Source: a virus
Taxonomy: Duplodnaviria; Heunggongvirae; Uroviricota; Caudoviricetes
Direction: 5' to 3' (one strand)
IMG/VR virus record: IMGVR_UViG_2897352509_000007
Length of the DNA: 64,000 nucleotides
Position 1 is the first letter of the stretch. Each line of letters starts with the position of its first letter. The position numbers are program-made. Of the stretch, positions 15,001-18,000 are shown in pieces.

Positions 15001-18000
15001 GTGTGTCACGTTAACCGGAAAAGGGAAAAAGACATGCTGAAACAGCAGGATATGACAGAAACCGCCAGAGTGGTGTTTAATGAATTAAGCGTTACCGACC
15101 CGGCGACAGTCGGGGAGATTGCGCAGAATACTTACCTTTCACGCGAACGCTGCCAGTTAATACTGACCCAGCTGGTTATGGCGGGTCTGGCAGACTATCA
15201 GTTTGGTTGTTACAGACGCCTTCAGTCCTGAAGGCTTTTTTATTTGTGGTAAATGGGCGGCTGGTGGGTGTAAGGGGCACCCACCAGCCATCTGCTCATG
15301 CGTTGGGTTCACAAGCAAACCTCAGGCCCACTGCTTTGCGCAAAAGCAGAATGAGCCTATCAGAGACAGGCTTAATGATCCATGCTTAATACTGTAAAAA
15401 TATCCAGTTGTGAGTTAATCAACGCCGACTGCCTGGAATTTATGCGGTCGTTACCCGAAAATTCTGTTGACCTGATAGTCACGGACCCGCCGTACTTCAA
15501 AGTGAAACCCGAGGGCTGGGATAACCAGTGGGCGGGTGATGAAGATTACCTGAAGTGGCTGGACCAGTGTCTTGCGCAGTTCTGGCGGGTGCTGAAACCT
15601 GCCGGAAGTCTTTACCTGTTCTGTGGCCATCGTCTGGCATCTGACACCGAAATCATGATGCGTGAGCGGTTTAACGTGCTGAACCATATCATCTGGGCAA
15701 AGCCGTCCGGACGCTGGAACGGGTGCAACAAGGAAAGCCTGCGGGCGTATTTCCCCGCCACAGAGCGCATTCTGTTCGCAGAGCATTATCAGGGGCCGTA
15801 TCGTCCGAAAGATGCCGGGTATGAGGCGAAGGGTAGGACACTGAAACAGCATGTGATGGCCCCGCTGATTGCTTACTTTCGTGATGCGCGCGCTGTCCTG
15901 GGGATAACGGCAAAACAGATTGCAGATGCCACAGGAAAGAAAAACATGGTGTCGCACTGGTTCAGTGCCGGTCAGTGGCAGCTGCCGAACGAAAGCGATT
16001 ATCTGAAATTACAGGCACTGTTTGCCCGGGTGGCAGAAGAGAAGCATCAGCGGGGTGAACTGGAAAAGCCCCACCACCAGCTGGTGGATACGTATGCCTC
16101 TCTGAACCGACAGTATGCGGAGCTGCAGAGTGAATATAAGCATCTGCGGCGGTATTTCGGTGTGACGGTGCAGGTGCCGTACACCGATGTGTGGACGTAT
16201 AAACCGGTGCAGTACTATCCAGGGAAACATCCGTGCGAAAAACCGGCAGAAATGTTGCAGCAGATAATCAGCGCAAGCAGTCGTCCGGGAGACCTGGTTG
16301 CAGATTTCTTCATGGGGTCGGGGTCGACAGTGAAAGCAGCGATGGCGCTGGGACGTCGTGCAACTGGCGTTGAACTGGAGACTGAACGTTTTGAGCAGAC
16401 GGTGCGGGAAGTACAGGATTTAATCATTCGTAACGGATGAGATTGCGGAGTTAATCATGCGTCGTTATTATTCAGCAATCGGCCCTTTAGCTCAGCGGTG
16501 AGAGCGAGCGACTCATAATCGCCAGGTCGCTGGTTCAAATCCAGCAAGGGCCACCAACCGCCACTAGCTCATCAGGAAAGAACGTCACCCTGTGCGAGAT
16601 TCGGAGTCCCCGGTGGCGGTCCATTATCGGTATTCTGCGTTGTTAGCTCAGCCGGACAGAGCAATTGCCTTCTAAGCAATCGGTCACTGGTTCGAATCCA
16701 GTACAACGCACCACACCACACTTATCTGCCCTGACTCTCTTTTGCGGGCTTTTTATTACAGGAAAGACACCGGACAGTGAAATGTTAAATGCCTCACAAT
16801 TCAGGCAGTTGACTGTTGCCTGACATGCTGAGCGTTTGTTAAAAAAATCCTGCATGATGAATCCCCCTGAGCGGCGGGGCATAATGACAGATGTTTGGTT
16901 GCGTATTGTATAGGCAAGTTGCGGATTCTGTCTGGTCATTGCAGAATTCACCGGGAGGCACCCGGCATCATGCTGTATACAGAGATTAGGCATATATCCA
17001 GGCTTCTCATCGCAGGAGCCTTTTTACATGCAAAAAAAAGCCCGAGTGGGTTCGGGCAACAGCATGAGATACTTGCATTGTCATTTTTATCGTGTGGATT
17101 TTAACCAGGGTTTATAAGGCTGCGCAACTGCGCGGCCTTTTTCGTTTTGCGGGCTGCGGTTCTCCTCTTTTGATTCTCCTTGTGGCCGGACCGTGGCCCG
17201 CAACTGTTGAGGAAAATCCCGGAAAGGGGAGGAATAATGACATTTAAACATTATGATGTTGTCAGGGCGGCGTCGCCGTCAGACCTTGCGGAAAAGCTGA
17301 CACACAAACTGAAAGAGGGCTGGCAACCGCTATTCTGAACGCAGCCGGGCGCACCTCAGCCTTCATCAGTGGTAAGGCACCGGAAATCAAACCCTCGCCC
17401 GGCGGCAACACGCCATCGGGTCCGTCTGCAGATACGTCCGTTCGCACAATCTCCCTGCTGCCGGCAGCCGGAGAGGCTGCTGCGCAGGGCTGGAGCATTA
17501 AGGATGGCGGAATTCAGTTGTCAGATGGTGTATTTAAGATCACCAGGCAGAGCAATAAAACCTGGTCCCTGACGCATCCGGTGGATGACGCAATTACCCT
17601 GCTGACACAGGGCGGCAGACTGAACTGTAAGTTCCGCCTGTCAGGCGCACTGACCAACAATCAGTTCGGGCTGGGGATTTATCTGTATACGGATGCTCCC
17701 GTTCCTGATGGTGTGGCGATGACGGGTACCGGTAATCCGTTCCTGATGTCGTACTTCACTCAGACCACTGACGGCAGAGTGAATCTGATGCATCACAGGA
17801 AAGCCGGAAACACGAAGCTGGGGGAGTTCGGCGATTACGGTAACGACTGGCAGACGCTGGAGCTGGTGTTCACCGCCGGCAGTGCCACGGTTACTCCGAA
17901 ACTGAATGGAGTGGCTGGCCCGGCATTCCAGGTTATAAAAGACAGTCTGACACTGGGACTGAATGCGCTGACGCTGACGGATGTTACAAAAAATGCAGCG

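Follow-up and report, generated by a model that had tools for sequence, protein, structure and literature searches.

The 64,000-nucleotide (nt) stretch of virus DNA recorded as IMGVR_UViG_2897352509_000007, hereafter the window, to which all bare coordinates refer, contains a locus in which a late antiterminator gene is followed by a DNA methyltransferase gene, a tRNA cluster, two small RNA (sRNA) genes and the phage lysis genes. An original prediction had described 15382-17236 as a methyltransferase plus tRNA cluster at the place occupied by the Shiga toxin genes (stx) in Shiga-toxin phages. The region is very probably the cargo ('moron') slot of the late operon of the lambdoid prophage Sp9, in a toxin-free form, and this appraisal extends to the mechanism proposed below. 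Its parts follow one another as Q-like antiterminator, tR'-like terminator, winged helix-turn-helix (wHTH) open reading frame (ORF), second terminator, methyltransferase, ileZ, dead argN, argO, linker, facing sRNA genes, broken nanS-p and lysis genes. A DUF968 gene and rusA lie 5' of the Q-like gene, while 3' of 17236 there is a 33-codon DUF1737 ORF and an out-of-frame DUF6645 frame, then the holin, DUF1327/YdfR and lysozyme genes. The features are as follows (lengths of proteins in amino acids, aa).

14250..14792, plus strand: Q-like late antiterminator gene, 180 aa (ECs_1778); Pfam DUF1133 E=1e-110, a weak Phage_antitermQ match and PHROG 753 'anti-termination protein Q-like' E=3.8e-74
14890..14910, plus strand: tR'-like intrinsic terminator, CCACCGGAAGGTGG then T7; read from the sequence, the scan giving the same hairpin on the opposite strand
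15034..15231, plus strand: 65-aa ORF (ECs_1779) with a weak winged-helix match; Pfam TrmB E=0.004, under the curated cut-off; PHROG 331 E=1.9e-37
15218..15243, plus strand: second terminator-like hairpin, GCCTTCAGTCCTGAAGGC plus T6, between the small ORF and the methyltransferase gene; terminator-pattern scan
15382..16440, plus strand: orphan beta-class N6-adenine DNA methyltransferase, 352 aa (ECs_1780); Pfam N6_N4_Mtase E=2.4e-43
16481..16556, plus strand: tRNA with CAU anticodon (ileZ3, annotated tRNA-Ile); ARAGORN, Rfam tRNA 70.9 bits, Sakai annotation
16557..16623, plus strand: argN pseudogene (tRNA-Arg UCG remnant); alignment to the intact argN of Stx2a_WGPS2, phi296 and Lahn2
16637..16713, plus strand: tRNA-Arg(UCU), argO3; ARAGORN, Rfam tRNA 71.4 bits, Sakai annotation
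16738..16797, no strand: stx-less 'empty-site' linker; pairwise junction alignments
16823..17031, plus strand: STnc100-family Hfq-binding sRNA gene (EcOnc28 peak of Sp9); 175.2 bits with Rfam RF02076 (gathering score 47, E=7e-41), the match spanning all 206 model positions
17033..17092, minus strand: anti-sRNA family gene EcOnc03, facing the STnc100 gene; 17036-17086 match the published EcOnc03 exactly
17116..17139, plus strand: strong terminator-like hairpin (10 pairs, 7 of them G-C, and a T-run) between EcOnc03 and nanS-p; terminator scan
17237..18057, plus strand: nanS-p (phage 9-O-acetyl-sialic-acid esterase) pseudogene; DUF1737 stump at 17237-17338 (Pfam E=4e-11), C-terminal DUF6645 out of frame
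18207..18422, plus strand: holin gene S, at the start of the lysis cassette and the boundary of the slot; Pfam Phage_holin_2_1 E=8.5e-33

Every element of the inventory first proposed (Q, methyltransferase, tRNA(CAU), tRNA-like element and tRNA-Arg(UCU)) is thus present at or beside the coordinates given for it, as judged by the ORF listing, ARAGORN and Rfam. Over 14800-18200, identity is 100% with Escherichia coli O157:H7 TW14359, EC4115 and about two dozen further listed genomes. In TW14359, the prophage opens with an integrase adjoining ompW, and the window starts at the same integrase. In the Sakai record, these genes carry the label 'prophage Sp9; lambda-like phage' (ECs_1778, annotated 'phage antiterminator', ECs_1779, ECs_1780 DNA methylase, ileZ3, argO3, ECs_1781 and ECs_1782 S), and the window shows a single mismatch to Sakai across 14250-17329. 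Because of this identity, the adjacency to ompW and the Sakai label, the window is, on sequence grounds, prophage Sp9 of E. coli O157:H7. Sakai Sp9 shares with it the ompW site, Q, the small ORF, the methyltransferase, the tRNAs and the sRNA pair, and differs in nanS-p (ECs_1781), which is intact in Sakai (617 aa) whereas the window copy carries a 1,033-base-pair (bp) internal deletion. According to the TW14359 annotation, the early region of the prophage also holds the adhesin gene paa and hokD, and its pseudogenes include a fimbrial gene with a frameshift, a tail assembly gene T that is truncated and a C40 peptidase gene interrupted by a stop; the areas concerned correspond to about 10760-12010, 32220-32530 and 36250-37000 in the window (offset 5201).

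Within the tRNA cluster, neither ARAGORN nor Rfam calls a tRNA in the 80 nt between ileZ and argO, whereas the same detection calls an intact argN in Stx2a_WGPS2 and phi296. In the alignment, the window copy has lost 12 nt, and with them the anticodon loop, has gained 1 nt in the T arm and shows several substitutions, so that the complete cloverleaf of a functional argN is lacking. The middle tRNA-like element is a dead argN; ileZ and argO are intact.

The stx site and its linker

The proposal that this arrangement precedes stx in Shiga-toxin phages is borne out. A megablast search against 50,697 phage records returned 395 with a match, mostly Stx1- or Stx2-converting phages, none of which covers 80% or more of the query. 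The order Q - methyltransferase - ileZ - argN - argO precedes stx2AB in many Stx2 phages (Stx2a_WGPS2, Stx2_EH2201, phiP27, 1720a-02), which match the window at 85-92% nucleotide identity from 14902 or 14936 to 16713-16758. These phages share with Sp9 the small ORF, the methyltransferase and the tRNA cluster, and have the same sRNA region after the toxin genes. They differ in that 37 nt of the linker give way to about 1.34 kb comprising stx2A and stx2B with the sequence directly around them, in having an intact argN and in using a different Q module, the homology starting only at 14902, at the tR'-like terminator. The flank architecture of a Stx phage, with Q and ileZ-argN-argO on the 5' side and the sRNA pair, nanS-p and S-R-Rz on the 3' side, is thus present. 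The toxin genes are absent, as had been claimed: searches with stx1AB and stx2AB by blastn and tblastn gave no significant match in the whole 64-kb window, which lacks the stxA and stxB that, placed between the late promoter or tRNAs and the lysis genes, define a Shiga-toxin-converting phage, and the first sRNA gene starts 110 nt past argO.

Pairwise alignments place the edges of the toxin cassettes within this interval. Stx2a_WGPS2 matches 14902-16756 at about 90%, from the small ORF to argO, continues with stx2A and stx2B, and resumes homology at 16794, 45 nt past the stx2B stop codon; homology in Stx2 phage 86 likewise restarts 45 nt past the stx2B stop. The cassette of about 1.34 kb in Stx2 phages therefore corresponds to 37 nt (16757-16793) in the window, and these 37 nt are missing from the Stx2 phages examined. 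In the Stx1 phage YYZ-2008, homology restarts at 16780, 40 nt past the stx1B stop, and 16757-16779 are absent.

The linker sequence recurs elsewhere. In the stx-less phages PPwrbA_EH2201, phi296/phi315/phi367, TL-2011a and Lahn2, argO runs directly into linker sequence of the window type, with 98.6% identity over 74 nt (16739-16812) against about 80% in the neighbouring sequence. An exact-pattern scan found a 36-nt linker core in 56 IMG/VR contigs which, together with three phage loci (PPwrbA_EH2201, phi296, Lahn2) and the window, reduce to 24 distinct sequences. All 24 have argO 42-48 nt upstream, in some cases with a variant T arm, and a gene of the STnc100 family downstream, in flanks that are 67-100% identical to the window. 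The per-position profile gives about 60 nt of linker at 98% identity or more and 71-100% in the flanks, a contrast that is partly the product of choosing loci by an exact 36-nt match. A genome scan with one genome per species returned the linker in a single Escherichia sp. contig, which shows that the exact sequence is confined to Escherichia at that sampling. From this distribution, the linker is a widespread standing stx-less allele.

This distribution bears on an alternative in which Sp9 once was a Shiga-toxin phage, stx has since been lost, and the stretch from argO to the sRNA genes is the scar. Homology with Stx phages reaches on one side to within about 50 nt of stxA and on the other to about 40-45 nt from stxB, Stx phages are mosaics that swap modules readily, and stx-less relatives of 933W-type phages are known (phi296, PPwrbA_EH2201, Lahn2). 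However, blastn and tblastn detect no stx remnant, and because the 37 nt at 16757-16793 are absent from the compared Stx2 phages, a simple deletion of stx cannot have made the window allele; the linker, moreover, recurs (98.6% identity, 74 nt) in stx-less sequences of which at least 24 are distinct. Loss of stx is accordingly judged improbable, and replacement by recombination with an stx-less allele much less likely than a history in which stx was never carried here. The 'replacement junction' that was to be sought by alignment finds no support: the alignment returned an intact stx-less allele, including the 37 nt lacking in the compared Stx2 phages.

Other contents are found at the same place. 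In the stx-less PPyecE_EH1910 (4112-5710 of its locus), the methyltransferase and nanS-p genes are separated by RelE-like, antitoxin-like and TerB-like genes, with no annotated tRNAs, which indicates that the slot accepts varied cargo.

The orphan methyltransferase

The 352-aa protein has the motif order of beta-class enzymes, with TDPPYF at residues 34-39 (DPPY 35-38) and FFMGSGST at 309-316 (FxGxG 309-313). About 150 residues separate the DPPY and FxGxG motifs, the Pfam and PDB matches are split over the N- and C-terminal parts, and the nearest solved structures are the beta-class RsrI, CcrM and MboIIA. NCBIfam yields only sub-threshold matches for this protein and none for the Q-like, small-ORF and nanS-p proteins. 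Over its full length, the enzyme is identical to M.EcoGII at 325 of 350 residues (93%, 2 gaps), in a comparison with a reference sequence that was machine-extracted from supplementary file 5 of PMC11551740 and may contain a few extraction errors. M.EcoGII and M.EcoGI come from prophages of E. coli O104:H4, and the window enzyme shares with them, besides the 93% identity to M.EcoGII, the beta-class order, the prophage location and the orphan status. It differs from M.EcoGII by about 25 substitutions, several of which fall in the central target-recognition region, and by three additional C-terminal residues.

M.EcoGII methylates adenine in any context and blocks many restriction enzymes (Murray et al. 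2018, PMC5778455). According to the same study, its constitutive expression is toxic and slows growth, M.EcoGI and M.EcoGII are not expressed in their native lysogen, and the two are very closely related, differing at 16 of 349 residues. Its authors proposed that M.EcoGII is switched on at induction and overcomes host restriction, and reported very similar enzymes from numerous prophages of E. coli as well as from phage 1720a-02 (PMC5778455); the latter matches the methyltransferase part of the window at 92% nucleotide identity. Published methylomes of O111 Shiga-toxin-producing E. coli (STEC) strains that encode homologues of M.EcoGI and M.EcoGII contain no extra methylated motif. The window enzyme, too, is probably without a target motif to detect. 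M.EcoGIX is not the relevant phage methyltransferase, the literature describing it as plasmid-borne and single-strand-specific.

The gene is an orphan, as first proposed: Pfam, PHROG and PADLOC identify no endonuclease or other defence partner among the neighbouring ORFs, and an enzyme that is prophage-borne and lacks a cognate endonuclease conforms to the M.EcoGII type. In 933W-like phage phi296, only a 99-nt ORF (3636-3734 of its locus) annotated 'DNA methyltransferase' stands 5' of the tRNA cluster; from this annotation, it may be the remnant of a gene of the window type.

The sequence upstream of the gene suggests how it would be controlled. The terminators at 14890-14910 and 15218-15243 would keep it silent unless Q-dependent read-through occurs, and the sigma-70 scan gave no promoter-like site directly 5' of it. 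The 65-aa ORF between the two terminators, whose family PHROG 331 is of unknown function, is also found in Stx2a_WGPS2, phiP27 and PPyecE_EH1910. It is a constant companion of the M.EcoGII-type methyltransferase in these phages and has its own terminator-like hairpin behind it; this small protein might control expression of the methyltransferase. In Stx2a_WGPS2 (4244-5807 of its locus), two opposite-strand hypothetical genes of 540 and 1,032 nt, absent from the window, lie between Q and the small ORF.

Some orphan methyltransferases, such as Dam and CcrM, do serve as regulators. The Sp9 enzyme, itself an orphan with about 25 residues, some central, that depart from M.EcoGII, could on this model be sequence-specific, active in the lysogen and an epigenetic regulator of host or prophage genes. 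Such a role is very unlikely. Neither of the closely related M.EcoGI and M.EcoGII is expressed in the lysogen, constitutive M.EcoGII harms the cell, two terminator-like hairpins separate the Q-like gene from the methyltransferase gene, the scan gave no promoter-like site immediately 5' of the latter, and the STEC methylomes with homologues show no additional motif. Where the original prediction had offered 'anti-restriction or epigenetic', anti-restriction is thus the supported option, from the literature on M.EcoGII, while the epigenetic half of the statement is unlikely to hold, given the silence of M.EcoGI and M.EcoGII in lysogens and the two terminators.

Two facing sRNA genes and a broken nanS-p

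The stretch of about 520 bp that follows argO had been described as holding several hairpins and only a short DUF1737-like ORF. The hairpins are real, since the terminator-pattern scan gives 7 sites in 14700-17400 against 3.0 +/- 1.6 in shuffled sequence, but they are not anonymous: the stretch holds two Hfq-binding sRNA genes that face each other and are already known, the STnc100-family/EcOnc28 gene and EcOnc03. Facing pairs of Hfq-bound sRNAs between the cargo slot and a conserved downstream ORF have been described in Sp3, Sp4, Sp5, Sp9, Sp10, Sp11, Sp15 and Sp17 (Tree et al. 2014), and the same study assigns EcOnc03 (minus strand) and EcOnc28 (plus strand) to Sp9, an assignment repeated in a later review.

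The plus-strand gene is a full-length match to STnc100, well above the gathering score, and ends in a terminator at 17000-17029. The peaks of EcOnc28 and EcOnc03 are 61 nt apart (Tree et al. 2014, Table S2), a spacing that puts the former at about 16931-16976, within the STnc100 match; the coordinates of Tree et al. run about 137 nt below those of the current Sakai record, judged by the position of EcOnc03. The Sp5 homologue of this RNA is EcOnc27/sRNA103, which lies directly after stx2B and is detected on Northern blots (Tree et al. 2014 and later literature). By eye, the reverse complement of the published EcOnc27 probe is almost identical to 16968-17003. The Sp9 copy resembles the STnc100 (RF02076)/EcOnc27 = sRNA103/PasD family in its full-length structural match and in its site just after the stx site, and differs in following tRNAs rather than stx2B; its identity with the copies in Stx phages is about 76-86% across 16794-17329.

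On the opposite strand, EcOnc03 has a terminator at 17057-17040 followed by T8, and conforms to the EcOnc01-03 group of Tree et al. in its length (51-60 nt), its conserved 3' part of about 42 nt with terminator, and its position facing a longer sRNA downstream of pR'. This RNA was established by Hfq crosslinking, by mapping of the 5' end and by Northern blots showing species of 56, 54 and 51 nt, and it is destabilised in the absence of Hfq (Tree et al. 2014). AgvB (RF02702) and AsxR (RF02703) likewise lie between the cargo slot and nanS-p, pointing towards an STnc100-like RNA as EcOnc03 does, and share the conserved 3' part and terminator. EcOnc03 is a third paralogue, whose variable 5' region, AAAUGACAAUGCAAG, is unlike theirs. 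The segment 17033-17092 scores 56.6 bits with the AgvB model, against a gathering score of 56, with the 5' stem of the model not formed, and 46.8 bits with the AsxR model, under its gathering score of 63. In place of the CACAACA by which AgvB mimics the GcvB R1 targets, the window has CGAUAAAAAUGACAAUGCA. Because it is without the motif that makes AgvB a GcvB sponge, EcOnc03 should not be named AgvB.

That the 520 bp are terminators and spacer without gene products is scarcely credible. Three or four terminator-like hairpins and the want of a convincing protein-coding ORF would fit such a reading, yet they have to be set against the full-length, high-scoring covariance match to STnc100, the exact match to EcOnc03, an RNA that has been observed by three methods, and the detection of the Sp5 homologue EcOnc27/sRNA103 on Northern blots. 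The strong hairpin at 17116-17139 belongs to neither annotated sRNA; it would overlap, on the other strand, the presumed promoter region of EcOnc03. The sigma-70 scan gave nothing at threshold 5' of either sRNA gene. Another abundant Hfq-bound RNA of Sp9 described by Tree et al., EcOnc12, lies about 5 kb downstream of EcOnc03, at about 22060-22110 (minus strand) as estimated from their coordinates.

AgvB acts on GcvB and AsxR on FnrS, which provides parallels for sponging by EcOnc03; no paper giving the target of EcOnc03 was found. A tentative proposal, which we rate as possible and on balance doubtful, combines two ideas: the abundant EcOnc03 may sponge a core-genome sRNA, and the linker at 16738-16797, nearly invariant in stx-less phages and prophages with flanks at just 67-90% identity, may be a promoter or 5' processing site of the STnc100-family RNA. 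If the linker is functional, insertion of stx there would put the STnc100-family sRNA under toxin or late transcription.

The short DUF1737-like ORF does exist (17237-17338), although it lies outside the 520 bp, starting one base past 17236. The intact gene in 28RC1 and Sakai (ECs_1781) encodes a 617-aa protein with DUF1737, SASA and DUF6645 domains. In the window, the 1,033-bp deletion, which breaks in a 5-nt TGGCA microhomology at 17321-17325, has removed the SASA domain, which spans residues 66-262 when the protein is complete, and shifted the frame, so that no single frame contains SASA; RefSeq marks both nanS-p remnants as pseudogenes. NanS-p phage esterases, of the SASA family with an N-terminal DUF1737, lie at the same position before the holin gene, and the window retains their DUF1737 and DUF6645 parts, whereas the catalytic domain is deleted and the frame broken. 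Only about 30 of 5,426 complete E. coli genomes match a query across the deletion without interruption, a rarity that marks one O157:H7 sub-lineage (TW14359, EC4115, SS17, SS52, JEONG-1266 and others). The DUF1737 ORF is thus what a lineage-specific deletion has left of the 5' end of nanS-p.

Working of the slot and its significance

Altogether, these findings lead to a model of a toxin-free cargo slot governed by Q. In the lysogen, transcription from the late promoter would halt at the terminators and the methyltransferase would be silent, as reported for M.EcoGI and M.EcoGII. Upon induction, polymerase modified by Q would pass the terminators and the methyltransferase would be expressed. Given its 93% identity to M.EcoGII, the enzyme would then modify adenines of the phage DNA without sequence preference, and progeny DNA would thereby be shielded from many restriction systems of the next host. 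The two intact tRNAs read AUA and AGA/AGG, codons two to four times commoner in the prophage than in six neighbouring host genes, and both sRNAs, which are published as Hfq-bound in the lysogen, would act on the host RNA network. The chance that the methyltransferase is instead the modification half of a restriction-modification system is close to nil: the best PADLOC model is labelled 'Type II methyltransferase', a label that merely reflects the family name, whereas the ORF listing, Pfam, PHROG and PADLOC reveal no endonuclease, which a Type II system requires, on either strand of 14250-18057, the neighbours are the 65-aa wHTH ORF and tRNAs, and the sole long antisense ORF (15451-15957) has no family match.

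Several points weigh against the model of a working slot. The predicted non-specific methylation is carried over from an enzyme that differs at about 25 residues, with the machine-extracted reference mentioned above. In 28RC1 (3583-4640 of its locus), the same methyltransferase gene is annotated as frameshifted and is 1 nt shorter, which indicates that the enzyme is dispensable in the lysogen and for the host. No site could be assigned to the late promoter pR': at its threshold, the sigma-70 scan gave nothing in 14793-14890. Sp9 of the window strain may be defective for particle production: the pseudogenes among its tail genes (truncated T, C40 peptidase with an internal stop) indicate that particles have perhaps been lost, in which case the methyltransferase would have no current role for the phage. 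Finally, the codon frequencies (per thousand, prophage against host: ATA 7.6 and 3.6, AGA 7.0 and 1.8, AGG 4.1 and 0) compare the annotated genes of the prophage with only six flanking host genes, a small sample; they are consistent with the usual view that such tRNAs supply rare codons.

All components of the locus have been described before, for Sp9 itself or for close homologues, and the locus adds nothing new biologically in that respect. For annotation, it illustrates that an stx-like flank in an O157 genome does not amount to a lost toxin gene, that a 'hairpin' spacer can hold two real sRNA genes missed by protein-centred annotation, and that M.EcoGII-like is the appropriate label for the methyltransferase, a motif in lysogen methylomes not being expected. 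For strain typing, the nanS-p deletion is a marker of one O157:H7 sub-lineage. For the biology of these phages, Sp9 offers a clean stx-less reference allele by which the ends of both the stx1 and the stx2 cassette can be placed with a precision of a few bases.

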